Shown: positions 6,310 to 57,677, numbered from the stretch's first letter. The stretch: 64,000 nucleotides of DNA from an uncultured Bacteriovoracaceae bacterium (GCA_964563795.1 CAZLYB010000004.1:57026-121025); one strand, 5' to 3'. The notes: generated from the sequence alone by a model not told the origin. A program made the numbers and translations.

Positions 6310-6323
6310 AAAACCCGATCCGC

Positions 6324-17529: not shown

Positions 17530-19893
17530 TCAGCGGCGTTTTCGCCTGCCGGGGCTCGAGGCCCTTCTCTCGTCTGATTTGAAGTACTGCTCAATTTCCG
17601 AAGCGACGCCAGGCAATGTTTGAGCGAGAACCGGAAGCGGCGACACATTGGGGAACCCCTGTCGGAACTCCAGCCCAGGATCTCCATGGGTTTGAGGCCC
17701 GTAAAAGGTGCCTCCCATGTAAAAAAGAATCTGGGTGTGGATCGGCGTTCGAATGGCGATCGCCTGAAATCCAGAATTAAACCAGCCTTTAGCGTAATCA
17801 AATGGGAGCGCCGAATGGCCGGCGTTGAACACCTGGTCATACCAACCTGCCACATGAGTATGCCCGTTCGCCTCCGCACCAACGGCCGCGCGCCGATTCA
17901 AGGGAGAAACCGGCTTCCCGAAAACTCCGCCCATATGGCCATGCGAGATATTCAAGTTCGAAACGGAAAAGCGGTCATTCGGGCCGAGAATCTTGAAGTG
18001 CTCATTGTAGCTGACGCCGATGTCTTTTCTTAAGTACTCCTCAAAGGGATTCTTCCCTTCATTGGCGTAATTTTTCATGCGCGTGAGCGCGGCGGCGTTC
18101 CAATGGTTTTCAAGGTATTTTCCCGTCCTCAAAAGCCGCATCACGCGATCGTACCCATGATTGGAATACATATCGACGATGTAAGGTACGTAGCCCCGAG
18201 TCCTCTGCATCTGGTAGAGCAGGTCCTTCTGCATCGTCAGCCCGTACTTCATTTGCAAGTCGTAATCCCGTTCCAAGGGCTGCCGGATCAGGCTCGCGTT
18301 CGCCGAGAAATCGCCTTCGATGTGCCTCCCAAAAAATGAGAGGTCGAAATGATCATTGAAAACGAAGCTGAGAATGTCGACCGGCTTCCCATCAGTCCGC
18401 TTGAGCGCGGTCTCGGGATGGATGAACTGACGGTAAAAATTCTCGTAAAACGCGGGATCGTAGTTCGGCGAATGGGAGTCCCCGAAAACGACCGCCAGGA
18501 TGGGCAGATCCCTGACCTTCCCGTCAATTCCATAATGCTTATTGAGGTCCGAGAATCCGGGAGGGTATTCAATCGGCTCGCCCTTTTCGTTAGTGATCGT
18601 GAAGGATTCCTCGTTGAACGGCATTTCCCGCGGGCGATAGCGGGTTTCGAGCTTGTAGCGGAGATCCTCGGGAAGTCCCGCTATCTTCTCGAGCCTCATG
18701 GCGGCGATGCGCTGCATCTCATTCTGCAGCGCGCTGATCCTCGCTCCGATCGCGCGGCTCGCGAAATTCATGCCCAACGCGTTGATCGCGCCCGTGGTGA
18801 TGATCCCCGAGGGATACTTCGTGCTCGACGCCACGGGCACGAACAGGGAATGAGGGTGGACCAGCACCGAGAGGCCGCCCGGATCCGTGACTTTCACGAC
18901 TCCCGTTTGAGGCACGAGCGCGCGGTTGGGCAAAGGGATGCGATTGACCGAAAGCGACTGCCCGAACCCTCCCTGGAGAAAAAGAGTCTGGGGGCAAACG
19001 AAGCGATGCTGATCCGGGGCGCTGAAAACGTCCGGTAGGCCGCTTGACAGCCCATAAGCGGGAAAAGTAACCAAGGGCATCGCGCTCCCCTCGGCGCGGG
19101 ATGTAAAGTTCTGAAAAGTCATCATCGCATCGATGATCCCGGTTTGAACGGGGATTCCAGAGATGTAACCCGCCACCACCAGGGACTGACTCTTGCTCAC
19201 ATCGGCGATGAGCTGAGCGGCGATCTCATCATTGAAAGCCATGGTGTCCGGATACTGATTGAGGATGGAAGCGAGATCCTTCCACATCCCCGCATTCCCC
19301 TTGAATCCTTCATAGTAATCGCGAAAAAGGCCAAATCTTTTGCTGAAAATACGGATGAACCCGTCACGCTCATTTTTTTGGGTGCTGATCCCCAGGAACT
19401 CGGCGAACTCATTCAGCGTGGGGGGGTAACGGTTTTTGATCTTGGCCCATTCCCCCAGTTTTTTATAAAAAGCCCCGAGAATCGACTCGATCTGCTCAGC
19501 GCTGAAAATGGAATCCTGGATGGCCGCGATCCTCTCGGCGCTGTACTGCGCGGCTGCATTGACGTCCGGAGCGCCTTTTTTCCCGTAGATGGCGGGAATC
19601 TCGGCCCAAACCTCGCCCCAGCTCCCGAAAATCTGCTTGAGAGCGACCGGGGTGATGCCCAGCTCACGCTGCTCTTTTTCAGTGGGGAGCCTGAAATTCT
19701 CGAGGATGAATTTCAAGAAAGCCTGGACTTCTTTTTCCGTAGGCTTTTGAATCGCCTCCGTGGCTGCGGAGGCTTGGATGAAGGAGCCGCTCGCTGCAGC
19801 CGCGATGAGCTGCTCCTTGCAAGTTTTCTTTGCGGTCCCCGCATCGGCGAAGCTGGCAAAAAGCAGCGTGAGCAGCAGGAATGAACGCATCAT
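17530..19893 (-). CDS. Secreted protein with C-terminal calcineurin-like metallophosphoesterase domain
   Basis: The signal peptide is MMRSFLLLTLLFASFADA. Phosphoesterase motifs are VVFGDSHSP (GDxH), GHMGGVFGKP and NGHTHVAGW (GHxH). Its ATG overlaps the upstream gene stop (ATGA). Confidence 0.6.
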   Translation of the reverse strand: MMRSFLLLTLLFASFADAGTAKKTCKEQLIAAAASGSFIQASAATEAIQKPTEKEVQAFLKFILENFRLPTEKEQRELGITPVALKQIFGSWGEVWAEIPAIYGKKGAPDVNAAAQYSAERIAAIQDSIFSAEQIESILGAFYKKLGEWAKIKNRYPPTLNEFAEFLGISTQKNERDGFIRIFSKRFGLFRDYYEGFKGNAGMWKDLASILNQYPDTMAFNDEIAAQLIADVSKSQSLVVAGYISGIPVQTGIIDAMMTFQNFTSRAEGSAMPLVTFPAYGLSSGLPDVFSAPDQHRFVCPQTLFLQGGFGQSLSVNRIPLPNRALVPQTGVVKVTDPGGLSVLVHPHSLFVPVASSTKYPSGIITTGAINALGMNFASRAIGARISALQNEMQRIAAMRLEKIAGLPEDLRYKLETRYRPREMPFNEESFTITNEKGEPIEYPPGFSDLNKHYGIDGKVRDLPILAVVFGDSHSPNYDPAFYENFYRQFIHPETALKRTDGKPVDILSFVFNDHFDLSFFGRHIEGDFSANASLIRQPLERDYDLQMKYGLTMQKDLLYQMQRTRGYVPYIVDMYSNHGYDRVMRLLRTGKYLENHWNAAALTRMKNYANEGKNPFEEYLRKDIGVSYNEHFKILGPNDRFSVSNLNISHGHMGGVFGKPVSPLNRRAAVGAEANGHTHVAGWYDQVFNAGHSALPFDYAKGWFNSGFQAIAIRTPIHTQILFYMGGTFYGPQTHGDPGLEFRQGFPNVSPLPVLAQTLPGVASEIEQYFKSDERRASSPGRRKRR

Positions 19894-21299
19894 CGCCCTT
19901 CTCCCATTTGAGGAGGAATCAAGAGCTTCCGGCAATCCATTTTTCCGCCGAGCGCCTTCTTCGCCGTTTGTTCCGAGACTCCGAAGGCGAGCGAGACCGC
20001 CTGCGTGACGGTGTCCACCCCGTTGTACATTTTCACCGCCTCGCCGCCTCGCTGCATGCGGTAGTTCGAATCAAAAACCATGACTTGCGCGAGATCGACC
20101 GGATTTCCCGCCAAGGCGCTGGGATTGTGCTGCTGCAGACTGGGCACTGGCGCATAGAGCCAGGGAGGCGCGGTATTCAGCAAAATCAAGCGAAGCGGCG
20201 GCTGAGCGCGATTCATGTGCCGATCGAAATCCAGGACGGCGCGCGTGCTCCTCTCAAAAAGGGCGCGCACCTTGAGCAGGATCGAGATGTCATCATCGGC
20301 GTAGACGAGGACGTTCGGTCTCGGGTTCTCGGGCAGCTCCCGATCCATCCGGCGAAGCAGGACTTCCTGGATGAGGTGATTTAAGATCTTCACTTTGAGG
20401 TCGGCCAGGCTGATGTTCGGCTCATTGAATTGACTCACCGAAGTGGCGTCGCTCACCATGAGACGCGGATTGCTCAGCGCGTAGACCCGATCGATCAAGG
20501 ATCCAGCGGCGAGATCCCCGGAATTGATCAAGAGCTCTTTCGCCGCGGCCCATTCCACATCCGAATGCCCCCGATAAGTGAGAATGGACGAAGCCACCGG
20601 GAGCTCGGGCCTCGAGCTCAGCCGAAAGAGGGGGAAAAGCGGGCCGAACCTCCTGGTCTCAGCCATCCTCCCCACCGCTTCGATCAATGGCATATTCCCG
20701 GACGAGGGCGTCCTGAAGGCGCGATATGTTTGAATCGGATCAATATAATAAAATCTCGGGTTCAATTCTTGCCCGTTTGAAAGGCGAATGGGCTTGTCGT
20801 AGTAGGAGTTGCCCGGATTGGCGACCGACATCGCCCCGTCGTCATAGCGGCCCACCAGGTACTTCACCGGAAATTGATCGTAGGGCTGGATGTCGCTCCG
20901 CACGCCCTGCTCCCAATCCCGCATGGGCACATCGATGAACTCAGGGATGTCCCCCGCTGAAGCCAAGTCAAACAGTGGGCTTCCGTGCGTTTGCCATCGA
21001 AAAACCCTGAATACCGACGTTTCGTCGACCGCGAGATTGTAGTCGAAGTCATAAACGAAGAGACGGAGGGGCCCGAGATACGGCTCTTCTTCAGCCGCGA
21101 GCGGGCTGGACTTCTTTTTCGAATTTTTCGAGATCGTATTTTTTTTGGAAGATTTTTTCGCGACTGCTTTTTTCTTGGTCTCCGCGCGCGCGACGGACGG
21201 CGTTCCCATCTCCTCTAAAGAGAAGATGAACGCAAAAGCGCACACGAGCCCCCATTTGGCGAAAGTCCCCACCCCACCCATAGCGCTAGAGGCTAGCAC
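19890..21299 (-). CDS. Secreted hypothetical protein (469 aa in the track; start is GTG, an internal ATG lies 18 nt downstream)
   Basis: The N-terminus is hydrophobic (GTFAKWGLVCAFAFIFSL), followed by a Lys-rich linker. No known domain was found. Confidence 0.5.
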   Translation of the reverse strand: MLASSAMGGVGTFAKWGLVCAFAFIFSLEEMGTPSVARAETKKKAVAKKSSKKNTISKNSKKKSSPLAAEEEPYLGPLRLFVYDFDYNLAVDETSVFRVFRWQTHGSPLFDLASAGDIPEFIDVPMRDWEQGVRSDIQPYDQFPVKYLVGRYDDGAMSVANPGNSYYDKPIRLSNGQELNPRFYYIDPIQTYRAFRTPSSGNMPLIEAVGRMAETRRFGPLFPLFRLSSRPELPVASSILTYRGHSDVEWAAAKELLINSGDLAAGSLIDRVYALSNPRLMVSDATSVSQFNEPNISLADLKVKILNHLIQEVLLRRMDRELPENPRPNVLVYADDDISILLKVRALFERSTRAVLDFDRHMNRAQPPLRLILLNTAPPWLYAPVPSLQQHNPSALAGNPVDLAQVMVFDSNYRMQRGGEAVKMYNGVDTVTQAVSLAFGVSEQTAKKALGGKMDCRKLLIPPQMGEGR

Positions 21300-21440
21300 C
21301 AGGATTTTTGAAAAAGCAAAATTTAATTTGTTAAGGCCCGGGTTTTCGCCTGAAACGTCCCGAAAGCCGCATGGTAGGCGTCGACTCAGCGCGAGAAACC
21401 CGCTGCTAAAAGCGGCTGAATCAACTCAGGAATTATAATT

Positions 21441-21488
21441 AAATAATATTAGAATAAAATCTCGGCCGCTTGACCTGCAAGCCGAGAT
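21441..21488 (-). terminator. Rho-independent terminator candidate for the upstream minus-strand operon (560-aa gene)
   Basis: On the minus strand, the imperfect hairpin ATCTCGGCttgcaggtcaagcgGCCGAGAT is followed directly by TTTTATTCTAAT. It lies in the 330-bp AT-rich intergenic region 21300..21629. Confidence 0.4.
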
Positions 21489-21629
21489 GGGATATCGATA
21501 CATCCATTCGACGGGGGTTCTCAAAAGATTTCCCACTTTTTCTCCGGCTGCAGCACGACCTGCCCTGGCGGTTCGCGTTGCAGCAGAAGAAGCGGTGGGC
21601 GGTCAAAATTCCTCCGCTTGGAATTGAAA

Positions 21630-23312
21630 TCATGGCGCAATCCGCTCGCGATTGAGCCTTTTTAGCTCGATCTCCCGATCCCTTTTCTCGGCCAGTTTCT
21701 TCAGATCAGCCAAATCCTCAGCCGTGTAGTATTTCACGTCGGACAGCTTGATTAAAACCTTCTCAAGAAGAAGTTCCAGCTCATCCAGCCGCTTGGCGAT
21801 CCCGCTGACGTTCAGCCACCACTCATCCAAGGACTCATGATCCTGAATGGTCCCTTTCGTCCGTAAGGGCGCTTCTTTTCGCACTCTCTCCCTCATCCGC
21901 TCATAAGCTTCCTCGATCTCCCGATTTTCCTGAAGATACCGCCTCTTTTTGTCGAGGCGCTTGATTTCAAACGCCGAAGACTGCGAAGTGCTGGATTTTA
22001 TCTTGTTTTCTTTGTAATTCGCCTTGTTGTCCGCGTAAGCGAATTGACTGTAAAGACTCATGGGTGCGAGCTGGATTCGCAGAAAATCTCGGTGCTCGAG
22101 GAGATTCTCGACGTGGAGCTTCATCGCTTCGACTTCGCTTGCGGCCAGGAAAGGGATGTTCCGCGTTTTCTCATTCGGGAACGCGCGGGTAGCTTCCGCC
22201 TCCAGGGCCATGAGATCCAGGTCCAAATTTTGAAGCATGATGAGCAATCCCACCTCCAATGAATCGGAGGGATGAAAGTAATCCCGCGTGGGTTGCTGAT
22301 TTTTATCGTAAAGATAACCCATCAGGCCCGCTGTGGGAGCTGAGGCGATCGTGTAAGCTCCTGCGCGAGCGAGCCGCCTCAGCCATACCACTTTGAACGA
22401 TTTTTTCTCATCGGGATTATCGTACTGAATTTTTTTGTAATAATCAGAGACCTGGTCATAATAAGTTTTAAGGCGGGTCGGCTCCCGCACCGCGACGCTC
22501 AGCTCATCCGCTTTTTTGGAAAGCGGATTTCTGAGCCGATTCAAAACATCAACGAGTTCCTCCCCTTTTTTCCCGGCATTTTTAATGCGGTTCAATCCCC
22601 GGTTTTTCCAATCCACGGCTTTCTGGAACAGGCCCGCCCTTCCCGCGGATCGCCATGACCAGATCATGGTGATCCCCAGCATGGTCGCCGCGGTGGTCGC
22701 GAGCCAGCCGCTATGGCGGTCATAGCGCTTGAACAACTGCTCCATGCTCAATTCGGATTTGAGCAGGAGATCCGCGTAAGCCACTTGCTGGATGGGATTC
22801 CAGGAGTGGATCATCCGCGAAGTGAGGAGCGCGGTGATTTCATTCTGCGTCTCGGGGTACCCTTGGCACGCGGAAGGCACGAATTTCACGAAATAAGGCC
22901 AGATCTTCCTCCAGAGGCTTCCCCATGCCGTGGGCGCGGAGGGGCGGGACGACAGGATCAAGCTCTCGATCGGGAGCCGGATCAAATCATAATTGATCTG
23001 AAGATTGAAAAGCTCATCGAAGGCCTTCGAACCTTGGGCGGAAAAATCAAGGAGCCTGCTCAAATCCTCCTGCTTGCGCTTCTGAAACGGACCGGCGACG
23101 CGGGGATCGTCCAAAAACTCGCTCAGCCTTTTTCTTCGCTCCTCCTGGATCGCTCCGATGTTTTTATCCAATTCCTGGAGGTTGACCGCGCTGAGCTGCT
23201 CCTCGGCCTGGATCAGCTTCGACTCCACGTCACCGGGCGAGCAGAACTGCTCAGCGGCCGCCGGCCTTAGAGCAATGAGTGGAATGAGGAGGAGAGCGGA
23301 GAAAGTTCTCAT
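21630..23312 (-). CDS. Secreted hypothetical protein with coiled-coil segments (560 aa)
   Basis: The signal peptide is MRTFSALLLIPLIALRPAAA. Several Lys/Glu-rich heptad-like stretches are present. No known domain was found. Confidence 0.5.
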   Translation of the reverse strand: MRTFSALLLIPLIALRPAAAEQFCSPGDVESKLIQAEEQLSAVNLQELDKNIGAIQEERRKRLSEFLDDPRVAGPFQKRKQEDLSRLLDFSAQGSKAFDELFNLQINYDLIRLPIESLILSSRPSAPTAWGSLWRKIWPYFVKFVPSACQGYPETQNEITALLTSRMIHSWNPIQQVAYADLLLKSELSMEQLFKRYDRHSGWLATTAATMLGITMIWSWRSAGRAGLFQKAVDWKNRGLNRIKNAGKKGEELVDVLNRLRNPLSKKADELSVAVREPTRLKTYYDQVSDYYKKIQYDNPDEKKSFKVVWLRRLARAGAYTIASAPTAGLMGYLYDKNQQPTRDYFHPSDSLEVGLLIMLQNLDLDLMALEAEATRAFPNEKTRNIPFLAASEVEAMKLHVENLLEHRDFLRIQLAPMSLYSQFAYADNKANYKENKIKSSTSQSSAFEIKRLDKKRRYLQENREIEEAYERMRERVRKEAPLRTKGTIQDHESLDEWWLNVSGIAKRLDELELLLEKVLIKLSDVKYYTAEDLADLKKLAEKRDREIELKRLNRERIAP

Positions 23313-23315
23313 AAA

Positions 23316-24899
23316 CTAATTCAACGAATCTGACACGAAGTCACTGAAGTTTTTGAGATTTGAATAAAGCGTAGGCGTCATGACATCCGCCAATCTCTCA
23401 TTGCTTTTGGAATAAATCATAGCGAGCACTTGCAGATAAATTCGGTCCATCCAGGGATGCACACGCCCCTGCTTGAGATCCTCGAGGAAAGGGGTCTGCA
23501 CTGATTCACTCCATTTTTTCAGCGCGCCCCGCATCCGAGCTGGCCAGGCCGCTCGCGCTTCGCGAAGGAGGTTCGCATTCACGCTCGCCTCGCGCAACGG
23601 GGCGATCATCCGATCCACGTAAGATCTCATGCTCCCCTGAGGCAGCGTCGATACCGCAAAACTCATCGCCGTGAGCCAGTTGCGGTCCGAAAACTTCCTC
23701 TTATTTTGATCCTGCTTCTGCAAAAATAAAATCGCTTCGAGTTGCCTATAAAGAGGGTCAACTCCATAACCCCGAGAGCGAATGACATTCATCAAATCTT
23801 GGCTCAAACCTGAGAGCTGATCCGGGGTTCTCTTATTGTAATCCCTCCAGAGCTTGAAGATCTTCCAGTCTCTTTCGACCGTCAGTAAATCGGCAGCTGA
23901 AATGATGTCCCCAGCCGAAGAGATCAAATCCCCGCTGCTCGCAAGCGGATTCTCCCTGAGGCTCAAAAACTTCCATACGGAATTTTTGAAGTTATTCTCG
24001 AGCTTGGTCCTGGCTTCGTAGGCTTTATAGGTGGGATAGGATTCAAGTAGGAAAGGGGCGACAAAAGTCACAAAATCCAAAGTTTTAGTGACAGGCGCGG
24101 GAATGGGCCGAACCGCGTAATTAATCACCCGAATGGTTCTCGCGGCCGCGCCTAAAACCGAAATGACCGCCAATGAAGCTCCAGCGTAATAAATCTCTCC
24201 CCAAGCCTTCTCGATATTGTACTCCATTGATTTTCTGATGGCCGAAGGGAGCGAAACATTCAGATACCGGCTGGGGGGGAGCGGCAATTGAATGTTGCTT
24301 GAGCTCAAAAAATATCCCGGGGCAACCGCCTGCACACCTTTTAACCCGGCCGCTGAAAGCATCCGCGCATTTCTCACGGCGAAGGAGAGCGTTCTGTATT
24401 CGCTGATTTTATTTTTAAAGTTCAAAAAGCCGCTGATGGCTTCCCCTTTGGAAATGACGGCGGAACCCGCCAAGATCAGGAACGCCCCAATGTTATCTAT
24501 GTCCTGCGCTTCCCCGGCCCGGTAAAAATGATTTTCTTCAATCGAGGGCAAAAATGAGAGCGAGTACATCTGCTCCGCTTGGCTCAAAAGCTCCGTGATC
24601 GCGAACGGATGCCGGGGATATCTGTCCGCGATCAGCCGGCTGCGGGCGTCATACTGGCTTTTCTCGCTATCATCGAACAGTTTTAGGGTGAGATAGGCCA
24701 CGCAATCCCGGTATTTTTGGCGGAGCGGGGAATCCGGGTCAAGCTCGCACTCGCTGGCCGTGGCGAGCTCGATCATTTTATCCACCGAATCGCTGAAGCC
24801 CAACGGTCGATTGGAGCACGACACTTGAGCGTACCCGCTCGCGGGAACAAAAATGCCTGCGACCAAAAAAACCTGCGCCAAGAAAAAAGTTTTTCTCAC
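23316..24899 (-). CDS. Hypothetical exported protein (about 527 aa from a GTG start)
   Basis: The start was refined to GTG giving MRKTFFLAQVFLVAGIFVPASGYAQ (signal peptide). This GTG overlaps the stop of the 1478-aa gene (GTGA). The track ORF extends 98 codons further upstream in another reading of the same frame. Confidence 0.45.
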   Translation of the reverse strand: MRKTFFLAQVFLVAGIFVPASGYAQVSCSNRPLGFSDSVDKMIELATASECELDPDSPLRQKYRDCVAYLTLKLFDDSEKSQYDARSRLIADRYPRHPFAITELLSQAEQMYSLSFLPSIEENHFYRAGEAQDIDNIGAFLILAGSAVISKGEAISGFLNFKNKISEYRTLSFAVRNARMLSAAGLKGVQAVAPGYFLSSSNIQLPLPPSRYLNVSLPSAIRKSMEYNIEKAWGEIYYAGASLAVISVLGAAARTIRVINYAVRPIPAPVTKTLDFVTFVAPFLLESYPTYKAYEARTKLENNFKNSVWKFLSLRENPLASSGDLISSAGDIISAADLLTVERDWKIFKLWRDYNKRTPDQLSGLSQDLMNVIRSRGYGVDPLYRQLEAILFLQKQDQNKRKFSDRNWLTAMSFAVSTLPQGSMRSYVDRMIAPLREASVNANLLREARAAWPARMRGALKKWSESVQTPFLEDLKQGRVHPWMDRIYLQVLAMIYSKSNERLADVMTPTLYSNLKNFSDFVSDSLN

Positions 24900-27800
24900 G
24901 GTACACCGCCGAGCAGGTGGGTGATCCCCTTCATTTCCAGGAACCCGAAGCTTCCCGCGTCTTTTTGCAAATAGAAGCTGTTGTAAATTTCCCGGAGCTC
25001 GGGATGATTCAAGAAATCCTTCAACGCGATCGAAAACCGCCTGAATTCCTCCTGATTGACCTTCGGCCATTGCTCGTTCGACAGGAAAAAACGGTCGACC
25101 AGTCGGCCGACGTTCTTGGGCAGTGCTTGAGTGGGGCCGAACGCGGAGCTCTGCGGGTTCAATGGACTGCTCCCCCGGGATTCCACCCACCTTAATACCT
25201 CATAAAAATCCCAGTCCCACTCTCTCTCCGCGAATACTCTGCGGGCGGCCTCAAATTCATTGGAGTCCACCTCTGCTTGCTTCATGAGATCAAGCCGCTG
25301 CCCGGCATTCTGACCTCCGAGGTTGATGATTTTCGCTTCGAGCAGCTTGGAGGGAACCTTGCCCTGCTCGGGGTTCGCCGGATCCCAGTTCTTGCCGAAG
25401 CGGATCACCCCGTTCTGACCGTAGTACGCCTCATTGAACGCTCTTCGGACGAAGATCGGATCCAGCGTTTTCACGTTGCCACGGGCCAGCCGAAAGCTCT
25501 CGCGCCAGCTGAAGCCGCCCGACGAAGCGCTCGCCTCGAAATTCTTCCAGCTGCTCACGACTTCGGCCATGGCCTCCGAATCCCCCTTGAGCCGGTAATA
25601 GAGCCGCATCAATCCCAACCCGTTCGCCTCGTTCGCTTTTTCCGAAAGGCGCAGGGAGAGGTTCGTGAAGGCGCGCCTGCCCCTCAAATAATCCTGCATC
25701 GCCTCCGCTGACGAGTCGATGAGCGTGCGCCGATACTTGATGCTGATCGCTTCCAACAGGCTTTTTGAGGAAAGGTCAAACGTGGCCTGCTCTCCGTACA
25801 ACGCGACAAGCTCGGGATGGAGCTCCTTCAGCATCAGTTGAAAACTTTTCTCTTCCGCGTCGATCTCGCTCAAGACCCTCGCCGCGGCCCTCCTGAACTT
25901 GGCGATGTTCGCCGCGGCCCTCTCCACCTCGTCGGCAAGCCCGATGATTTCATCATCCAAAACCGTGATGTTTTGGATCGCGGGCAGATCCGCATCGATA
26001 CCCCACTCATCATTCAACTTCCTGGCGATGATCGCCAAACGCTTGAGGACCGTGGTTCGCAGAGCGATCCAATACCCCTGGTTCGCCACTCCGCCCTCGA
26101 GGCTGATCGCCGCCTCGATTTCATCTTTGGTCACCCCCGCCAACCGCATATCTTTGAAAAAACTGTTGAATTTGTACTCCTTCACAGCCAGGCTGATCCC
26201 TTGCGCGAAGATGCCGAGCCCCAAGATCAGCGCCAGCCCCCCCACCGCCAGGGCCTGTTCATTCACTTTTTCGCGGAGGTCTTTTTTCGAGGCCTCATAT
26301 TCGGCCAGGTTGAAGAAGCTCGCCTCCGAGCTGCTGAAATAAAAGCTGTTGATGTTTTGGTAGTTCACGCTCGAGCCCCGAATGAGCGTATCGCCGTAGT
26401 AAACACCGGTCCCCAGGGCGAAAAGAGCGAGCAAGTTCCAAGGCGCGATCACGTCATCGAGATGCGGCCCCAAGATCGGGCCGAATCGATTCGTGAAAAA
26501 AACGGCGCCCGGCTGCAAGAATCGTTGGATCAACGGCCGCTCCGACTCGAGAAAAAATTTCAGGCCCACGATCCTCGCGAGCACTTTTCCCACAATCACG
26601 CCCCCCGCGTAATAGCCGATGTACTTCCCGATCTCCTTGGCCTCCCTCGACCAGAGCGGGCCGTAGAATTTGTCGGGAGCCCGATCCAAGATCGCCCGCC
26701 TCTGCACCTCGGAGAGCGCTGGAAACTGGGACTGAAATCTCTTTTGGAACTGCGAAGAATGCTCGACCAGCGTGAGCATCCGATCGATTTTTTCGGTGAG
26801 TTGTTCCAGCTTTTCGTAATCCCCGTCGCCCAAAAGCGCGAGTTTTTCGGCGGATTGAAAGGCGAAGTTTTTGATCCCCGATTCGGCGCGCGTGATCCAG
26901 TAATCGGCCTGAACAAGATTTTCCGCGTCCGTTGGCCGATCCTCGCCCGCCTGAATATCGAGGTTCGCCAGAATTTCATAGAGCCTCTTCTGCTCCTGCT
27001 CACTGGGACGCTTGGCGAATTCAAAGCGCTTATCCGCCCCGATCCGCTCCCCGATGCTATAAGCGAAATCCTTGAAGGCGCCTGAGACCGTGAATGGATC
27101 GCCGTCCGTCAAGCTCCATTGATTGAAATTCAAGATATTGGAATCGATCAGGCTGCTTTGCAGCATGGCTCGGTAAACCGCGATCTGAGCGGGATTCAGC
27201 GGCAAATCCGCGAGCTTCACCGTGGCGCCCGACTTTTTATGGCCTTGTTGGAGAAATCCGAGCCAGCAGCCCTGCTTCAAGAAAAGCCTCAGCGAATCGC
27301 GGAGAATCACTTTTTTCCTCACGTCCAATTCTTCTTCGGCTTTGTTCCTGTTTTGAGTCCCCGGGATCACGGGCCATCCGATGTACCGCTCGAACGCGGA
27401 TGAATTCACTTCGCAATCTTTTTCGGCCAGCTCGGCGAGCACGACCGGCTGAAACCCGATCGGGTTGTTCAAGACGATTTTCCCGATCATCGAAAGATAA
27501 AGCTGCTGCGCTTGCCGATAGCTCGGAGCGTTTCGGATCAAATCCCACCAGGGTCTCGTCAGGCCTTCCGAGACTGAGCTTCCGGACAGCAAGCCCAAGG
27601 ATTGAATCAAAATCGGGAGATCCACCTCATGCAGATAAGCGGGCTCCTGCGTCGCGCGAAAAATCGCCTTGGAGCGAGAAACCAAGTCCTGGACGTACGG
27701 AGCGCGGATCTTCTCCTCGTAGACTTTCTCTTCGATCGATTTCGCCGTCTGGATCAAATCCGCGATTTCGGGGGCGGTAACGAGCTGCTTTTTGAGCTCT

Positions 27801-29332
27801 TGCCTCCGCTCGGAGAGCAATCTTCTGATCTCCCGGTGCTGGCGCGCTTTCTCGGTCTTGATCTTTGGAGCGTCTTTTTTCTCCGCGACGGGAAGCAGCG
27901 TGTTCAAGATGGGCTCGCTCGCCTGCGAGAGGGCGAGCGAAATCATGTCCGCAAAAACCGCGCGGAGCTCCGTCTCAGTGTAAGCCGAGAAAGGGGCGGC
28001 CCACGTCTCAAGCTGCTCGAGGAGCTTGCCTTGAAAGAGCATGTGCTCGGTGATCACCCAGTCGTCGATGAGAACGGCGACTTCTTTGGCGTTGAGCTCG
28101 GCTGCCTGGGGCAGGAGCACCCGCACCACCGACTCAGCGAGCTCAGGAGTCACATACTCAAAACTCAACGACTGTCGGCGGCGGATTTGCTGGTTCAAGG
28201 CCTCCGCCTGCTCATCGCTCAGGGAGAAAACCCCCGTTTTTGAATCGGCGCCGCCTAACTTCGAATCTTTAGCCAGGGGAAGAGTGAACGCGTACCGCTT
28301 CGCGGCCTCCTGCAGCGAGAGCCTGAGCCGGACTTCCACCCGATCCTTGTCGTTCTCCCAAAACCGCGCGGACTGATCCGCCAGGGCCGGGATATCCTTG
28401 AAGAGCTTCGCGTTGAACTTGGGGGGAGCCTGCACCGGATCGCGCGTGGTGACGTTGAGGACGCCCAGGGATTCGATCAAAAAGGCAGACAAGCCGTAGC
28501 GCGCGGCGCTGAACCATGAGGCTTCGCTCGCATCGCGATCCCTCGCGCGCGCCTCGATCTCCTCGAGCAACTTGCTCGAGAGCTGGAGGCTGATCTCACT
28601 GCGACTGTTGGGGTCCGCCAAAAGCGAGCCGTAGGATTTTTTGGAGAGGATGACGAACGATTGATTCTTCTGAAGCAGCGCCTTGAGCGAGCTCGCCGAG
28701 AGGAATCCCTCGAACTCGTTGTACCCATTCAGGCTATAAAAAGTCCGGACGGGAATTTTGAGCTCGAACTGGTCTTCTGCCTCTTGAGCCCTGAGCGGAG
28801 CGACCCAGGAACCCTGGATCCGCGCGTGCGCGGCTCGAAGCTGGGCGATCTTCATGAGGCGGGAGAAGTAGTCCATCATGAGAAAAAGGCGATTGTCGGT
28901 CTTGAAACCCTTTGAGGAAGGAATGAACGCGTGCTGCCGGAAGTTCTCCTCCAGCGTCGATTTCCAGCTGAGGAGATCGCTTTGGACCTTGAGCAAGTCT
29001 CCGCTGAATTGAATGACGTCGAATGGCCCGGAGGTGACGCTGTTCTTGTTGTTGAAGACGCGGTCGAGCCGCCGGAGCTCACTGCCGAGCCGGATGGAGG
29101 TCTCGGTCAGCCTCACGACTTCGACTTTGCCGCTGGAGGCGGTTGGAGGCTTGGCTTTTTTCAGGGTCTTGGGGGGCGCTTGGTCGATAGCGGCTTCAAA
29201 GGCCTCGACCCGCTCCATCTCTTCGTCCGCGCGCGCGGGCTTGGGAAAAAGAGCCGCCACCCCTGATATCTGGATGATCAGGGGGAAGGAGAGGATGATC
29301 CTGGCGCGTGAACCCCGGTGAAAAAGGCGCAT
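24896..29332 (-). CDS. Giant (1478 aa) exported or membrane-anchored hypothetical protein
   Basis: It has an N-terminal signal peptide (SFPLIIQISGVAALFPKPARA), a predicted helix-rich body, and a mid-protein hydrophobic cluster (GYYAGGVIVGKVLARIVG, LLALFALGTGVYYG, ALAVGGLALILGLGIFAQGISLAV) that implies 3 TM helices. No recognisable catalytic motif was found. Confidence 0.55.
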   Translation of the reverse strand: MRLFHRGSRARIILSFPLIIQISGVAALFPKPARADEEMERVEAFEAAIDQAPPKTLKKAKPPTASSGKVEVVRLTETSIRLGSELRRLDRVFNNKNSVTSGPFDVIQFSGDLLKVQSDLLSWKSTLEENFRQHAFIPSSKGFKTDNRLFLMMDYFSRLMKIAQLRAAHARIQGSWVAPLRAQEAEDQFELKIPVRTFYSLNGYNEFEGFLSASSLKALLQKNQSFVILSKKSYGSLLADPNSRSEISLQLSSKLLEEIEARARDRDASEASWFSAARYGLSAFLIESLGVLNVTTRDPVQAPPKFNAKLFKDIPALADQSARFWENDKDRVEVRLRLSLQEAAKRYAFTLPLAKDSKLGGADSKTGVFSLSDEQAEALNQQIRRRQSLSFEYVTPELAESVVRVLLPQAAELNAKEVAVLIDDWVITEHMLFQGKLLEQLETWAAPFSAYTETELRAVFADMISLALSQASEPILNTLLPVAEKKDAPKIKTEKARQHREIRRLLSERRQELKKQLVTAPEIADLIQTAKSIEEKVYEEKIRAPYVQDLVSRSKAIFRATQEPAYLHEVDLPILIQSLGLLSGSSVSEGLTRPWWDLIRNAPSYRQAQQLYLSMIGKIVLNNPIGFQPVVLAELAEKDCEVNSSAFERYIGWPVIPGTQNRNKAEEELDVRKKVILRDSLRLFLKQGCWLGFLQQGHKKSGATVKLADLPLNPAQIAVYRAMLQSSLIDSNILNFNQWSLTDGDPFTVSGAFKDFAYSIGERIGADKRFEFAKRPSEQEQKRLYEILANLDIQAGEDRPTDAENLVQADYWITRAESGIKNFAFQSAEKLALLGDGDYEKLEQLTEKIDRMLTLVEHSSQFQKRFQSQFPALSEVQRRAILDRAPDKFYGPLWSREAKEIGKYIGYYAGGVIVGKVLARIVGLKFFLESERPLIQRFLQPGAVFFTNRFGPILGPHLDDVIAPWNLLALFALGTGVYYGDTLIRGSSVNYQNINSFYFSSSEASFFNLAEYEASKKDLREKVNEQALAVGGLALILGLGIFAQGISLAVKEYKFNSFFKDMRLAGVTKDEIEAAISLEGGVANQGYWIALRTTVLKRLAIIARKLNDEWGIDADLPAIQNITVLDDEIIGLADEVERAAANIAKFRRAAARVLSEIDAEEKSFQLMLKELHPELVALYGEQATFDLSSKSLLEAISIKYRRTLIDSSAEAMQDYLRGRRAFTNLSLRLSEKANEANGLGLMRLYYRLKGDSEAMAEVVSSWKNFEASASSGGFSWRESFRLARGNVKTLDPIFVRRAFNEAYYGQNGVIRFGKNWDPANPEQGKVPSKLLEAKIINLGGQNAGQRLDLMKQAEVDSNEFEAARRVFAEREWDWDFYEVLRWVESRGSSPLNPQSSAFGPTQALPKNVGRLVDRFFLSNEQWPKVNQEEFRRFSIALKDFLNHPELREIYNSFYLQKDAGSFGFLEMKGITHLLGGVP

Positions 29333-29417
29333 AACCGCGGCACTTTACACCACTTGGCGCAGTTTTATTACATTAAAATAATTTATAAAAATCAGGACCT
29401 TAGGGACTCGGCATTAT

Positions 29418-30602
29418 TTATATAAGCTCAGAGCATTTGCCTGCTGCATCCATCACTGCTTTACGACTCTCTGCGCTCGCTCGAATCGTCTGTCGGATGG
29501 TCCGCGCAAAAAAGCGGCACTCTTCACTCGCCAATATCTCCACTCTGCCAATGGCATCGGCTAATGAAGTATTGAGCGCTTTCGCCAGTGCAGCGACCAC
29601 AATACCAGCTCGGATCACCTCAGCGCCGTTATAGGAACGAATCCCCTCACCGATACGTTGCGCTAAGGTCTGATCGCTCACTTTGAAAAGAGGCGCTCCC
29701 AATGCGTTATGAATTTTCACCCCATTTGCAAGCGCCCAAAGATAAACATAAGCGGGGTTTTCGCCAACAGGGACCTGCCGCGCAGTCGCTGGAGCCGTTG
29801 CATTGGGATTTGCTGTTAACGTGCAAGCAGTGCTGGCTCCTGATCCCACGATGAACGCATAGGCTTGAGGTTCTTTTATCGCTTGCTGAGTCACTGCATC
29901 ATCAGGGAGCTTATGATAACTGACGTCACGTTTAACGAGAGAGGCCATCTGATCTAAAGTGAAAGACATCAAACTTTTAGCTTCCGGAGACAGCTCTTCC
30001 TTGAGTCCCGCAATTTTATCAGATTCCACCACCGGAACCGACTTGACGACTGGACCCCCTGCTACCGTGGTCCCTGAAAATCTACGGGTGCCTGCCCCCG
30101 TTGATACCGTGGCTTTCGAAGGAGCTGTGCCTAACGCCGCTTCCCCGGACACGCGCAAGGCAGTAACGCGATCCGAACTAAAGGCAGAATAGAGTTCGTT
30201 TACTGCGCTTAAAACCTGCAGAAGCTGTTTCTCAGCTTGCTGCGGATTGGTGATGATTCCTTGAACGACGAGTTGGCTCATATCCTTGCCCTCGCTCAGG
30301 ACCAAAGGACCCGTCGCCGATAAAAGCGCGAGAAGGCGGCTCTCAATCAGCCCCTTGGAAGATCCGGCGATGCTCAATATCCCTTGAGCCTTAGTGGTCT
30401 GGCTAGCAAGCACAGCGGCTTCCTCAGTCGTTAACCCCTTTAGCGCCGCAAGAATTTTTTCCGCTACTTTCTCAACCGATTGCGCCGCTCTGAGCACTTC
30501 CGTCGGTCCCGCCTGAACGTAAGCAGAATTCAGAAAAAAAGCAGTCACCAGGAGCGACCCTGAAATTTTTAAACCATTCCTAACACTCATAAAAAAACCC
30601 AT
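29418..30602 (-). CDS. Secreted hypothetical protein, Ala/Ser/Thr/Gly-rich
   Basis: The start was refined to MGFFMSVRNGLKISGSLLVTAFFLNSAYVQA (signal peptide). Its GC content is intermediate (about 50 %) compared with the 60 % neighbours. Confidence 0.45.
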   Translation of the reverse strand: MGFFMSVRNGLKISGSLLVTAFFLNSAYVQAGPTEVLRAAQSVEKVAEKILAALKGLTTEEAAVLASQTTKAQGILSIAGSSKGLIESRLLALLSATGPLVLSEGKDMSQLVVQGIITNPQQAEKQLLQVLSAVNELYSAFSSDRVTALRVSGEAALGTAPSKATVSTGAGTRRFSGTTVAGGPVVKSVPVVESDKIAGLKEELSPEAKSLMSFTLDQMASLVKRDVSYHKLPDDAVTQQAIKEPQAYAFIVGSGASTACTLTANPNATAPATARQVPVGENPAYVYLWALANGVKIHNALGAPLFKVSDQTLAQRIGEGIRSYNGAEVIRAGIVVAALAKALNTSLADAIGRVEILASEECRFFARTIRQTIRASAESRKAVMDAAGKCSELI

Positions 30603-30704
30603 CTTCGAATTGATTCCTTGAATATGCACTTGATCCCCCCTTGCACACGAACTTCAAGATTAAATTCACATAACTCAGAACAAGCGGAGATGCAAGCCGG
30701 CCGC

Positions 30705-31526
30705 TCAGGGAGCGGCAATCCAGGCGAGCTGCCCAATCACCCAAGCATTGCGCTTCTGGTCCTTGAAGAGGAATCCCAGGGAGCTGGAGGGGTGAGCCTC
30801 GGGCGAAAGTCCTTGAATTTTAGCCACTAACTCCCTCCCTCGATTTTCTTGAAGGGTGGGCCATCCCTGAATTTTCACCGCATCCATGCGTTTGATGGCT
30901 ATGCGGACGCAGTCGCTGAGGCTAATGCCCGCAAGCGCTTCCAAATCCAAGTCATCCGCCACTACCGGCTCATACTCTCCGGGCAGACTCGGGCTGATCT
31001 GGCAGTCGCTCCAGCGGTGCTCTTTGAACTTTGCCCATGAAAACAAAGGGATCCCCCAAGCCTCCCAAGGCGTGTAAGCCCAGGGAACGGGAGCGTCAAA
31101 AGCCTCTCGTTCTGAAAGCCGGTATTCAATGGGAATGATCTGTCCCGTCAAGGAGTAAGGGTTGAACGCCTCGGTAGGGAAGGTACGGGTCGAACCCCCG
31201 TAGCCGAAAGTCACTCGACTGATGAAGGCTTCATTGTCCGTCCACAGCGTTTTTTTATCCGAGAGCTTTGACTTGGAGCGGAGCAAACCCACCGCTTGGT
31301 CGACGCATTTCTCAGGGATGCGATGGGCTTCGATGTCTTGGACTTTATGGTGATAAGGCCCGTAAACCAGCCACTTTTGATCGCCATCGTAATGCCCGGT
31401 GAGCGAGCAGCGGAACGGGAAATCGGCTGATTCGAGGGCGTGCGAAACTGGCCCCCCGCTTAATAGGAGCTGAAAAATAAAAACCAATTTGGTCCATGGA
31501 CTTAGACGGATCATCAAGAAAGTCAC
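30705..31526 (-). CDS. Secreted hypothetical protein (273 aa)
   Basis: The N-terminus is a signal peptide (MTFLMIRLSPWTKLVFIFQLLLSGGPVSHA). It is Trp/Tyr-rich. No known domain was found. Confidence 0.45.
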   Translation of the reverse strand: MTFLMIRLSPWTKLVFIFQLLLSGGPVSHALESADFPFRCSLTGHYDGDQKWLVYGPYHHKVQDIEAHRIPEKCVDQAVGLLRSKSKLSDKKTLWTDNEAFISRVTFGYGGSTRTFPTEAFNPYSLTGQIIPIEYRLSEREAFDAPVPWAYTPWEAWGIPLFSWAKFKEHRWSDCQISPSLPGEYEPVVADDLDLEALAGISLSDCVRIAIKRMDAVKIQGWPTLQENRGRELVAKIQGLSPEAHPSSSLGFLFKDQKRNAWVIGQLAWIAAP

Positions 31527-31581
31527 ATACCATAATTTACACTATATTTATATATTAAATAAATTCGGATTATTTTTTTAT

Positions 31582-34191
31582 TTAATTGCTGCTTTTAGCG
31601 CTGTCGATAAGACACTTGATTTTAGCAGAAAGGCTTTTTTCTTTACCTTTATTATCCTTAAAGTGAAGGGCTAATCTAAAACCTGCTTCATCCTCTATTG
31701 CGTCATTGGCGTCACGATAGCTATTTTCGCCTTTATTAAAAAACTTTTTAGCTATTTCGTTTAGAAATTCCTCCCTGTTCTCAATTGAAACTGAAACTCC
31801 ATGGGCTTTTTCTTGAGTTTTAAGGTATGAATCCAATTTGAACTCAAGCACTTTCTTAAACTCCTCTAAGGTTTGAGGGGGGTGAACAACGCCAATCTTC
31901 AGCATTCTATCCAATAGAGGCGCTTTAATTCCCATCCCCTCTCTACCTGGAACACGAGTCATCGCGCTCTTAAGTTCATTTAACTTAATGCCAGTCGGAT
32001 GTTTTACAATGTAGTCCTCGCCTGCATTCGTGGTGAATAAAAAAGAGGCATTCGAGCACATTACCTCAACGGTCGTTTTTCTATTGCTAGTACTTGAGCC
32101 ATCAATGGACTCTGTCATTTGTATGGTTTTGTTTGCTGTTGCCGAAAGAAGCAAATCATGAATCGCAGTAGAGGCTTTATCTATTTCGTCAAACAAGATC
32201 ACAGTATGGGGGTCCTCAGTAAGAATACTGCCCAATCTATTTAAAAAATTCTCAGTATCGCCAGAAGTATAGTCACCCATACGAATCTCAACAAATTTTT
32301 CGCCAAGTGCTCTTGCATACGCTCGAGCCAAAACAGTTTTTCCTAAACCTGGGGGCCCCGCAAGCAACAGAAGAATCCTAGGTTTTGATCGATCATGCGT
32401 TCCGAATAAAACTCGAGTTGTCTCCCTCAGCAGGCCCTCCTTCAAATCTTGCAATCCCAAAACAGTTTCATTCATGGAGGGGATTAACTGATCAAGCTTA
32501 TTGATTCGGGCTTCTGAATCGAACGCAGAGCGATCGATTTTATAAAGGCGTGACGCAGGCCCATCAACGTATTTTTCAGTGAGCGTGCCGATCTCTTTTC
32601 CTTCAAATGCCGCGGTTGCATAGACCATCTCGGTCAATCGTCGCGCTTTTACCAAAGGTGTACCTCTTGCATCATAATCAGCGGATATCGCCAAAATCCT
32701 TACATAAACTTCTTCATTGAGAAGTGGGTAACCATGTTTTTTTGACCAACTTTTTAATGCCTCAACCAATTGATTATTTGGAATAGGTGAAATTTTTATT
32801 TCTGTCATCGCCCCACCGACTGAAAAGCCACTAAAAAGAGACTTTAAATCTTCGGGGGTCGTCGAACCAATCGCTCGTATCGAGCCACTCCTCATCCAAG
32901 GTGCTGCTAAATCAAAAAAACCTGTTGAATCGCCCTGGTGCGCTCCCGTAAATCGAATTAAACTCTGATTATCCATAATTAAGATAACATTAGGATCACT
33001 ACTTGCTAACTCGAACAAGGCGGCAGAACGGCTTGTAAAAGCTCCTGAAAAACGAGAGCCCGCCCCCAAAGCAGCATCAGTGACGTGAATAAAGCGTGTA
33101 GTGGATGGAATTTCTGGATACTTTCCAGCCTTAACACTGGCTACAAAAGTATTGAGATACTCCGTCCTTCCAGATCCTGACTCTCCGACTAAAACTGAGC
33201 TTTTCATTTGCCCTCTTAAAAGATTTATCCGCATACTATCAATGATCTTTGCATCTAATGGCTCTTCAAAAGCCCCCCCATTCCGTTTAATGACCTCCTC
33301 ATAATCAACAAAATGTTCATTAACAATGTCTTCTGCCGGACGCCTTCTCACGCCATCCTCATCAACAATCAGCTTCTTGCCTTTAGCGGGTTGATTGGCT
33401 TTCGAAAGCTCGTCAAATTTAGCAAGCGGCACTGGATGTGAGTCGCCTACAATAACTTTTTTTTCGTTCGATTCACCTTCGGCCCTGATGGAAATCCCTT
33501 CATCAAATTTTGGGGGCAATTTTTGATTCGGAACTAAAACAAACTCCCCATTCTCCCGAATCAAAAATAAATCGCCTACTGTCGGTGGGGCGAGATCACT
33601 CTCAGGCGGATAAGGCAGGAAAAGGCCCCGATATGATTGTCCTTCGATTGTGAGTTCAGGGGAAACTCTCCAGTTCAAGATTTCACTTTTAAGCCCACCA
33701 TTATTTCTTGTATGCTGATGATATTGGCGTTGTTGATTTAGTGGAATTTTTAATTCCGTACGAATTCCACTTTGAGAAATGAGCACAAGGTCAGCACCGA
33801 TGTTTACGACGGTGTATCTCCCTCCTTTTAATTCGTGCTCGACTCGAGCGTGAAAAATTTCACCATTGTTGTGCACATTATTAACCCAAGATGAACCGAC
33901 GTTCGTCGCATAGAACCTTCTTGGAAAAGAAGGATCCAAAATCTCAAATGGCGATGTATTAATCGCATTCACCTTTTCTAAGATAACTCCCTTTTCAACA
34001 TCAAAAATCAACCTATTCCCATTTTCAAAGACATACAAAAATTTAGGCGGATCAGAAAAAGCGATTGAAGGAGAAAAAACAAAGATGCTCAAAAATAAAT
34101 AATTTGTCCGTTTACGCAAAAATAGAATGATGCGCGGTGCAATAGAAAGGGACCAAAACCTCATGCGGACTTTTCGGACATTTAAGCGCAA
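31582..34191 (-). CDS. ClpA/ClpB-family double-AAA+ protein with a unique N-terminal domain of about 310 aa, a hydrophobic anchor and a degenerate D1 domain
   Basis: D1-like Walker A is VGESGSGRT (Lys replaced by Arg) and Walker B is ILIMDN (Glu replaced by Asn). The D1/small-domain junction RAIGSTTPEDL resembles ClpB R-x-IGATT. D2 is canonical (LAGPPGLGKT, VILFDEIDKA, LFTTNAG). The N-terminus has a hydrophobic stretch (YLFLSIFVFSPSIAFS). The gene sits in a DNA block of about 38-40 % GC. Confidence 0.7.
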   Translation of the reverse strand: MRLNVRKVRMRFWSLSIAPRIILFLRKRTNYLFLSIFVFSPSIAFSDPPKFLYVFENGNRLIFDVEKGVILEKVNAINTSPFEILDPSFPRRFYATNVGSSWVNNVHNNGEIFHARVEHELKGGRYTVVNIGADLVLISQSGIRTELKIPLNQQRQYHQHTRNNGGLKSEILNWRVSPELTIEGQSYRGLFLPYPPESDLAPPTVGDLFLIRENGEFVLVPNQKLPPKFDEGISIRAEGESNEKKVIVGDSHPVPLAKFDELSKANQPAKGKKLIVDEDGVRRRPAEDIVNEHFVDYEEVIKRNGGAFEEPLDAKIIDSMRINLLRGQMKSSVLVGESGSGRTEYLNTFVASVKAGKYPEIPSTTRFIHVTDAALGAGSRFSGAFTSRSAALFELASSDPNVILIMDNQSLIRFTGAHQGDSTGFFDLAAPWMRSGSIRAIGSTTPEDLKSLFSGFSVGGAMTEIKISPIPNNQLVEALKSWSKKHGYPLLNEEVYVRILAISADYDARGTPLVKARRLTEMVYATAAFEGKEIGTLTEKYVDGPASRLYKIDRSAFDSEARINKLDQLIPSMNETVLGLQDLKEGLLRETTRVLFGTHDRSKPRILLLLAGPPGLGKTVLARAYARALGEKFVEIRMGDYTSGDTENFLNRLGSILTEDPHTVILFDEIDKASTAIHDLLLSATANKTIQMTESIDGSSTSNRKTTVEVMCSNASFLFTTNAGEDYIVKHPTGIKLNELKSAMTRVPGREGMGIKAPLLDRMLKIGVVHPPQTLEEFKKVLEFKLDSYLKTQEKAHGVSVSIENREEFLNEIAKKFFNKGENSYRDANDAIEDEAGFRLALHFKDNKGKEKSLSAKIKCLIDSAKSSN

Positions 34192-34401
34192 AGGTCAAGT
34201 TCCGTAGTGTAAAAAAGATGCGGCGCGATGAAGCCATTTCACGCCTGATTCCATCCGTTTGCGTCATCCGGATTTTTAATTCGGTGAGTCAGCAGACGCG
34301 CCGGATTGCCGTCAAAAAAATGTTGACGCCACCTCGATTCGAGTCTACTTGGTGACTAGTAGCGGTACCTTTTTAGCATTAGATTTAAGGGGGTTGTCGT
34401 A

Positions 34402-34611
34402 ATGGCTACCGGTTTAGTGAAATGGTTTAATGACAGCAAGGGCTATGGCTTTATCCGCACCGAAGATACGGAGCGGGATATCTTCGTCCACTACAGCGCG
34501 ATCCAGGGCGACGGGTTCAAGACTCTCGTCGAAGGACAGCGCGTCGAGTTCGAGCTTGTGGATGGCCCGAAGGGCCCTCAAGCCTCGAACGTTTTCAAAA
34601 CGCCGCAATAA
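34402..34611 (+). CDS. cspA: Cold-shock protein (CspA family)
   Basis: The motifs [12 protein letters not shown] and VHYSAI are RNP1/RNP2. The length is 69 aa. An AAGGGGG ribosome-binding site is present. Confidence 0.9.
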
Positions 34612-54975: not shown

Positions 54976-55056
54976 AACCACTTCTCCGGGTCGCAGGCTT
55001 AGCACGACTTGCGTTTTCTTGCACTCCCTTTGGGGCCGCGCTAGGATCGGCTCCCG

Positions 55057-57676: not shown

Positions 57677-57677
57677 C

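Follow-up and report, generated by a model that had tools for sequence, protein, structure and literature searches.

The 64,000-nucleotide stretch analyzed here (hereafter the window) derives from an uncultured Bacteriovoracaceae bacterium (GCA_964563795.1, CAZLYB010000004.1:57026-121025). At positions 31540-34400 it contains a block that consists of one intact gene of foreign composition, located between a cold-shock gene and a series of genes for native secreted proteins. The product of this gene (hereafter the window protein) is a class I, i.e., two-ring, Clp/Hsp100 ATPase belonging to a large, unnamed branch that is closest to ClpA. The overall best explanation, for which we would estimate a probability of roughly 0.6, is that the foreign gene encodes an exported remodelling ATPase, which would be driven by the second (D2) of its two AAA+ modules.

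The assignment to class I follows from the presence of two tandem AAA+ modules that are homologous to the D1 and D2 of Clp proteins. A sequence search of the PDB returned E. coli ClpA as top match (E 4e-22), with one alignment running across both D1 and D2. A Foldseek search with the full-length AlphaFold model of the window protein (obtained with 61 family sequences; predicted local distance difference test, pLDDT, 84.7) also placed ClpA first, with ClpC1, ClpC, and ClpB behind it; the alignment to ClpA (E 2e-31) covers ~590 columns at 21% identity and has a target-normalised TM-score of 0.67-0.70. ClpA (TIGR02639) was likewise the top match in NCBIfam (96.5 bits, E 1e-27, residues 324-743), at a score that remains below the curated cutoff of 993. 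With ClpA, the unfoldase of ClpAP (PDB 6uqe, 7uiv, 1ksf), the window protein has in common the order of D1 and D2, the absence of an M-domain, the aromatic residue of the D1 pore loop, and the Walker A and B motifs, sensor-1, arginine finger, and sensor-2 of D2. However, it is not ClpA proper: besides its low equivalog score, it lacks Clp_N, the ClpS-type adaptor platform, the GYVG pore loop of D2, and the IGL/IGF docking loop, its D1 is dead, and it carries a predicted signal peptide, an unrelated beta-rich N-domain, and a conserved C-terminal Cys motif. Clp_N (PF02861) was matched by neither the window protein nor 40 members of its family, and Pfam gave only generic AAA models for the window protein, all placed on D2.

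Other named Clp/Hsp100 groups fit less well. The scores for ClpB/Hsp104 (TIGR03346; 65 bits, cutoff 1232) and ClpV/TssH (TIGR03345; 61 bits, cutoff 885) are below the cutoffs, and no genes of a type VI secretion system were found in the window. A preliminary description of this DNA had noted that the ClpB M-domain is absent, and both the alignments and the structural model agree: the D1-D2 span is as long as in ClpA and the model contains no long coiled coil. It had also distinguished the protein from ClpG and ClpK, which is borne out by scores of 52.1 bits for ClpK (NF033606) and 51.2 bits for ClpG (NF033607), where the cutoff of the models is 1900. Both ClpG and ClpK reside in the cytoplasm and have ClpB-like M-domains as well as active D1 and D2 modules with pore loops. 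The window gene resembles theirs in being a single, horizontally acquired gene of class I Clp type, but all of their N-terminal domains are absent from its product. An anti-phage defence AAA+ system was considered and rejected, since the PADLOC matches were limited to generic AAA models on D2 (≤35 bits), with none for the neighbouring genes.

An index-based search recovered the protein itself (P0001; the public gene model, 860 aa from ATG 34164) and one relative with 25% identity (P0002, “AAA family ATPase [Bacteriovoracaceae bacterium]”), whose D1 is intact and whose N-terminus is a textbook signal peptide (MAKLYLFFTLTVFLSFAHA↓QD). A two-sequence profile of P0001 and P0002 was used in a HMMER search of 1.84 billion representatives, from which the best 150 matches were taken. 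All but two of these (148; E 0 to 3e-49) possess the same architecture, being 780-1400 aa long or fragments thereof, and the two exceptions (P0249 and P0265) are ordinary Clp proteins. The boundary of the family, therefore, lies near the end of the best 150 matches and the family comprises at least ~145 clusters at 50% identity, so that the view of the window protein as a one-off variant has to be abandoned. To quantify family traits, 131 full-length representatives were compared with 114 ordinary ClpA/B/C matches, which served as controls. By a simple rule, a signal-peptide-like N-terminus occurs in 113 of the 131 family members but in only 4 of the 114 ordinary Clp proteins. The median spacing between Walker A and Walker B of D2 is 49 residues in the family versus 61 in the controls, and the aromatic-hydrophobic-Gly motif in this segment, which all 114 controls possess, is found in 12/131. 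The window protein has the predicted signal peptide, the N-domain, the D2 without pore loop, and the C-terminal Cys of the family; an intact D1 is the trait that it lacks. No curated model describes a protein that joins a signal peptide to this new N-domain, a D2 without pore loop, and the C-terminal Cys, and we found no paper on such a protein.

Further searches added little to the family. A profile search of proteins with an alignment of 40 family members yielded only ordinary ClpB and ClpA, and one with the N-domain alignment nothing. A scan of genome contigs by the D2 Walker B pattern was swamped by ordinary ClpA/B/C; its top match, L002, was rejected as an ordinary ClpA with GYVG and Clp_N. 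At least ten weak loci were obtained when metagenomes were scanned with an alignment of the N-domain plus D1.

Judged from the translated residues and their alignment to ClpA, the nucleotide site of D1 is destroyed in the window copy. The substitutions of Lys by Arg in Walker A and of Glu by Asn in Walker B, reported earlier, are confirmed. Beyond these, the alignments show Ser in place of the His in DE(A/I)H and loss of the arginine finger: the segment ALARRF reads SVGGAM, with Ala in the column that is Arg in 120 of 131 relatives and Gly in the Arg-rich column that precedes it. Among the 131 family members the window protein is the only one with Arg at the Walker A position, where 126 have Lys, while the Walker B Glu is present in 117. 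A dead D1 is thus real in this copy but, contrary to what had been proposed, it is not the mark of a distinct group. D1 is degenerate in ~18/131 members, the window protein included, and an intact D1 is typical rather than universal. The D1 of the window protein keeps the Thr of GxxGxGRT and Asp398.

The description of D2 as canonical holds for its ATPase residues, including the sensor-2 Arg, and these are also conserved across the family (Walker A Lys 130/131, Walker B Asp 125/131 and Glu 127/131, sensor-1 Asn 128/131, arginine finger 126/131, and sensor-2 Arg 105/131). It does not hold for the GYVG pore loop, which has been deleted, the gap in the alignment to ClpA falling exactly over GAPPGYVG and amounting to 12-15 residues, nor for the IGL/IGF loop. 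A tripeptide of the type [IVLMF]G[FY] is present in the window protein neither between the D2 sensor-1 and arginine finger nor in the C-terminal tail and, consequently, this copy cannot dock on ClpP through the IGF route. The combination of one degenerate ring and one intact ring recalls NSF (D2) and PEX1/PEX6 (D1), where the ring without hydrolysis is thought to serve assembly and the other ring to be the motor; in the window protein D1 has lost the Lys, the Glu, and the arginine finger and D2 is intact. NSF and PEX1/PEX6 are, however, cytoplasmic proteins of another AAA+ clade and their kinship to the window protein is limited to the AAA+ fold.

The C-terminal part of the family shows two further traits. 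At least 97 of the 131 members have a Cys near the C-terminal end (~10 residues away), with x-x-L-[LF] after it; the proteins contain a median of 2 Cys, and in many of them the conserved one is the only Cys. The tripeptide [IVLMF]G[FY], with a chance expectation of ~7% per 45 residues, is present at the position of the ClpA IGL loop in 52/131 members (~40%, not including the window protein), at the C-terminus after the conserved Cys in 14/131, and at both positions in a single member. The C-terminal tripeptide often takes the form R-x-IGF or (R/K)-x-IGF (P0122, P0125, P0127, P0137, P0163, P0168, P0215, P0222, and others). Since the internal and the C-terminal tripeptide are nearly mutually exclusive, this suggests that the ClpP-docking element has moved to the tail in 14 of the 131 members, which recalls the C-terminal HbYX motifs of proteasomal ATPases. 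The data also suggest that the IGF-bearing members, about half of the family, dock on a ClpP-type protease, either that of the predator or that of the prey.

The foreign origin of the gene is indicated by its composition. The block has a GC content of 41.9% compared to 56.3% for the rest of the window; the contrast described earlier is thus right in direction and size, although the values given (38-40% versus ~60%) were overstated. Among all 2.6-kb segments of the window, the one starting at 31501 has the lowest GC content (0.412; mean 0.557, standard deviation 0.035, i.e., ~4 standard deviations), and this sharp trough coincides with one open reading frame (ORF) of 869 aa, indeed the only one of the block. 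Its codon usage is AT-rich, as was also claimed: the GC content at third codon positions (GC3) is 0.37, and 12 genes around it have values of 0.49-0.85. In three other loci the GC content of the family gene and that of its surroundings are nearly equal (0.35 and 0.37, 0.52 and 0.50, 0.605 and 0.607). Because family genes elsewhere match their hosts, the low GC content marks foreign origin here and is not a property of the family. Of the features of a classical genomic island only the deviant composition is present: in agreement with the preliminary description, no integrase was found among the neighbouring ORFs and no tRNA in the 64-kb window, and direct repeats flanking the block are limited to short chance repeats. 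Rfam families gave no match within the window either, and the rest of it is ordinary chromosome with ast genes, kamDE, bamD, a flagellar cluster, folD, and gcvT.

A recently acquired gene with a dead D1 could also be a decaying or functionless xenolog that lost its D1 site first. In favour of this, D1 has lost four key residues whose columns are ≥90% conserved across the family, the codon usage shows hardly any amelioration, the IGF motif is absent, no close relative was found, and the gene has neither a strong Shine-Dalgarno sequence nor a recognisable promoter (the minus strand of 34192-34401 yielded no consensus promoter). We nevertheless consider decay unlikely, since the ORF of 869 codons is intact in DNA of 42% GC, in which chance stop codons are frequent, and since all catalytic residues of D2, the motifs of the N-domain, the signal peptide, and the C-terminal Cys have been kept. 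Furthermore, the recurrence of a degenerate D1 together with an intact D2 in the family looks like something tolerated or adaptive.

The case for export is based on the N-terminus. The hydrophobic stretch (YLFLSIFVFSPSIAFS) that had been described as an anchor or signal is real, but its core (YLFLSIFVFSPSI) measures only ~14 residues, no 19-residue stretch of the N-terminus reaches a Kyte-Doolittle mean of 1.6, and the core has RKR before it and a cleavage-type site, A-F-S↓D, behind it. The N-terminus aligns with the plain Sec signal peptides of P0150, P0126, and P0122, and in the closest subfamily a site of the form P-S-(I/V)-x-(F/A)-(S/A)↓D is found a few residues before a conserved F-x-F-x-NG motif. 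An alternative start at TTG 34119 would yield a textbook signal of 22 aa (M-RKRTNYLFLSIFVFSPSIAFS). Every in-frame start upstream of F-x-F-x-NG includes at least part of the hydrophobic core, and both TTG 34038, the first start that skips the core, and TTG 34011 cut into the F-x-F-x-NG region. On reading the sequence, no lipobox Cys was found at the end of the signal peptide. Given the short core, its flanking residues, the site common to the subfamily, and the scan of start codons, the most plausible reading of the segment is a cleavable Sec signal rather than the membrane anchor that had been supposed.

An uncleaved anchor would make the protein a membrane-tethered ClpA/ClpB-like disaggregase, a stress-island chaperone in the style of ClpG and ClpK. 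The presence of a hydrophobic N-terminal segment, the single and horizontally acquired gene, and the cold-shock gene that adjoins it here and in one other family locus (L085) would all fit such a protein. It seems quite improbable, however, in view of the length and hydropathy of the core, of the small-x-small site behind it, which is common to relatives with plain signal peptides, of the scores of only 51-52 bits with the ClpG and ClpK models, and of the lack of an M-domain, Clp_N, and D2 pore loop. Moreover, the positive charges before the core imply that even an uncleaved anchor would still put the AAA+ rings outside the cytoplasm.

The N-domain is beta-rich and is characterized by the motifs F-x-F-x-NG, (GETF)LIRE(D/N)G, and R-x-IDL. 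A hidden Markov model (HMM) of this domain based on six relatives and P0001 matches residues 23-317 of P0001 with an E-value of 5e-92, which is partly a self-match. With an HMM of seven subfamily members the domain was found in at least 40 representatives, and jackhmmer seeded with the N-domain of P0001 detected it in 92 of the 150 representatives, sometimes in two copies. The earlier statement that this beta-rich domain has no relatives is true for Pfam and the PDB, where none were found, but the domain is common to the family of at least ~145 clusters. Variations on the N-terminal architecture include two copies of the N-domain or extra N-terminal extensions (P0131, P0133, P0145, P0149, P0151, and P0183; 1000-1170 aa) and its replacement by ankyrin-like repeats (P0139).

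Taken as an exported remodelling ATPase, the window protein would be exported by the Sec system, with its signal peptide cleaved before DPPKF, and would form a hexamer. Its D1 would be a non-hydrolysing structural or substrate-contacting ring that presents an aromatic pore-loop residue (Phe), and it may still be able to bind nucleotide because the Thr of GxxGxGRT and Asp398 have been kept. D2 would be the sole motor; the near-invariance of its catalytic residues among proteins that are only 20-30% identical argues for ATP hydrolysis by this module. Hydrolysis combined with export would place the site of action in an ATP-containing place outside the cytoplasm of the producer. All relatives with an organism name stem from predatory Bdellovibrionota, which would make the attacked prey cell the most probable site, where proteins would be remodelled, unfolded, or moved.

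The bacterial periplasm is generally held to be free of ATP and does not have a known ATP source. This, together with the dead D1 and the absent D2 pore loop, would be consistent with an exported, ATP-independent scaffold or holdase in the periplasm. We regard such a function as very unlikely, as Walker A and B, sensor-1, the arginine finger, and sensor-2 of D2 are 80-99% conserved over 131 members at ~20-30% identity, which would not be expected if nucleotide were neither bound nor hydrolysed. Translation of a cytoplasmic protein from a downstream start such as TTG 34011, which has an SD-like (Shine-Dalgarno-like) GGGA six bases upstream whereas the upstream starts have weak ribosome-binding sites, is extremely improbable, as it would remove the family-conserved F-x-F-x-NG motif that the signal peptide of the relatives directly precedes, and as the public gene model begins at 34164.

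Several points weigh against the interpretation as an exported, D2-driven ATPase. Given the lack of a known periplasmic ATP source, the site of action is a guess, and substrates may not be threaded at all by a ring whose D1 is dead and whose D2 lacks the pore loop. The case for export is built on heuristic sequence rules. The nearest relatives of the window protein are only 31-32% identical and, therefore, no donor can be assigned, nor can purifying selection on this copy be demonstrated. Organism names are attached to only two clusters of the family, i.e., a Bacteriovoracaceae and a Bdellovibrionales metagenome-assembled genome. Finally, a conserved operon partner, for instance an exported ClpP, had to be rejected, as the nine family loci (the window included) have no conserved neighbour in common, the genes standing alone among housekeeping genes.

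A broader proposal would be that the Sec-exported Clp-type ATPases of predators form an undescribed class that acts inside the prey and is fuelled by prey ATP. We consider this doubtful. IGF-bearing members might then dock on the ClpP of the prey and cause uncontrolled proteolysis, or the family might power traffic across the inner membrane of the prey in an HSP101-like manner; copies with a dead D1 and without IGF, such as the window protein, would be specialised, non-proteolytic variants. The literature search yielded no paper that describes the export of Clp-type ATPases, be it in Bdellovibrio or in other bacteria. The nearest precedent in function, and the only well-studied class I Hsp100 that operates outside the cytoplasm of its producer, is Plasmodium HSP101 (ClpB2; PDB 6e10, 6e11), which is also among the PDB sequence matches of the window protein. 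It is located at the parasitophorous vacuole membrane, outside the parasite cytoplasm, and drives the export of effectors in PTEX (PMC7355975). However, HSP101 itself is a eukaryotic, ClpB-type protein with an M-domain and two active rings, has tyrosine pore loops in both, and docks on EXP2/PTEX150, and it shares neither homologous partners nor an N-domain with the window protein. The likeness is, therefore, best regarded as a functional analogy, for an exported Clp-type motor in an organism living within another cell, and not as homology of the system.

The positions of the gene, its domains and motifs, and the edges of the block, both of which are sharp, are listed in Table 1.

Table 1. Features of the Clp-like gene and its flanks, in coordinates of the 64-kb window.
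Feature	Position	Strand	Remarks
Longest ORF, Clp-like gene	31582..34191	-	869 aa from TTG 34191; stop codon 31582-31584
Predicted Sec signal peptide MRFWSLSIAPRIILFLRKRTNYLFLSIFVFSPSIAFS	34054..34164	-	Predicted cleavage before DPPKF; from hydropathy, start-codon scan, alignment, family statistics, and translation
Family-specific beta-rich N-domain	33211..34053	-	Mature residues ~1-281; ends in helices leading into D1
D1 AAA+ module, catalytically degenerate	32530..33210	-	Approximate boundaries
D1 Walker A GESGSGRT, Lys to Arg	33163..33186	-	Translation and alignment to ClpA
D1 pore-loop region AALGAGSRFS, aromatic kept (Phe)	33046..33075	-	Y/F/W at this column in 94/131 family members
D1 Walker B ILIMDN, Glu to Asn	32968..32985	-	Next conserved His is Ser; translation and alignment
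D1 arginine-finger region FSVGGAMT	32803..32826	-	AL(A/S)RRF in family; finger column Ala, preceding column Gly
End of D1-D2 linker, D2 AAA+ module, D2 small domain, and C-terminal tail	31585..32529	-	Approximate boundaries
D2 Walker A GPPGLGKT, intact	32335..32358	-	Alignment and translation
D2 Walker A to Walker B segment, GAPPGYVG pore loop deleted	32203..32334	-	48 residues versus 61 in ordinary Clp
D2 Walker B VILFDE, intact	32185..32202	-	Alignment and translation
D2 sensor-1 FTTNAG, intact	32020..32037	-	Following stretch (site of ClpA IGL loop) without IGF-type tripeptide
D2 arginine finger LLDRMLK	31897..31917	-	Arg in 126/131 family members
Conserved C-terminal Cys (Cys851), tail AKIKCLIDSAKSSN	31612..31614	-	KIKCLIDS; Cys in at least 97/131 family members
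AT-rich spacer from stop codon to next gene	31527..31581	.	55 bp, 24-27% GC; low-coordinate edge of foreign block
Upstream intergenic region, shared with divergent csp gene	34192..34401	.	210 bp, 44-50% GC; high-coordinate edge of block

On the high-coordinate side the Clp-like gene is flanked by a divergent gene for a CspA-like cold-shock protein of 69 aa (34402-34611, plus strand). In locus L085 a CSD gene (12755-12949 of that locus; 48% identical) directly adjoins a family member as well, but the presence of a csp gene beside a family gene in two of nine loci is probably due to chance. On the other side, the Clp-like gene had been described as heading a run of genes for exported proteins. 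The run exists: each of seven consecutive ORFs on the minus strand (17530-31526; 801, 469, 560, 624, 1478, 403, and 273 aa) begins with a signal-peptide-like sequence. None of the seven has a Pfam match and the three that were searched against the PDB have no relative there. A functional link is not borne out, as the GC content of these ORFs is native (0.52-0.57) and none of these genes recurs beside family members in the 8 other loci. Modelled as longest ORFs, the 624-aa and 1478-aa genes overlap at 24896-25190, so the true start of the former is probably further downstream.

Elsewhere in the window, three tandem ORFs of 198, 194, and 194 aa on the minus strand (5713-7803; a stretch of lower GC content, ~0.50) have signal peptides and a common Cys-containing N-terminal motif; over 66 aa the first two share 32% identity (E 1e-7), and the three resemble a small array of secreted paralogues. 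They are followed by a MoxR-type AAA ATPase (AAA_5) and a VWA-domain protein (7831-9707, minus strand), a classic MoxR-VWA pair that is unrelated to the Clp-like gene. Two ORFs on the minus strand, 53818-55197 and 63292-63993, have a reduced GC content (0.475 and 0.447; GC3 0.53 and 0.51) and may be older foreign genes, the only domain match of the former being a weak one to DUF2891. Between them, at 55916-60125 (minus strand), two adjacent large proteins (594 and 815 aa) built of DUF5122 beta-propeller repeats are encoded. For CspA, FlgG, FolD, GcvT, ETF-alpha, and flagellin of the window, not a single cluster mate with ≥90% identity was present among ~15 billion proteins in exact look-ups; the genome is very isolated and deeply branching.

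Clp/Hsp100 AAA+ unfoldases are taken to be cytoplasmic or organellar, since they depend on ATP. The contribution of the window itself is more modest: it provides one foreign, degenerate member of a family that would offer a set of natural experiments, i.e., rings with a dead D1, a D2 without pore loop, and an IGF tripeptide moved to the C-terminus. The existence of at least ~145 divergent clusters, nearly all of them with secretion signals, would, if true, imply either ATP-dependent remodelling outside the bacterial cytoplasm or motors that are delivered into prey, and either outcome would open a new question in the biology of AAA+ proteins and in that of predators and their prey.

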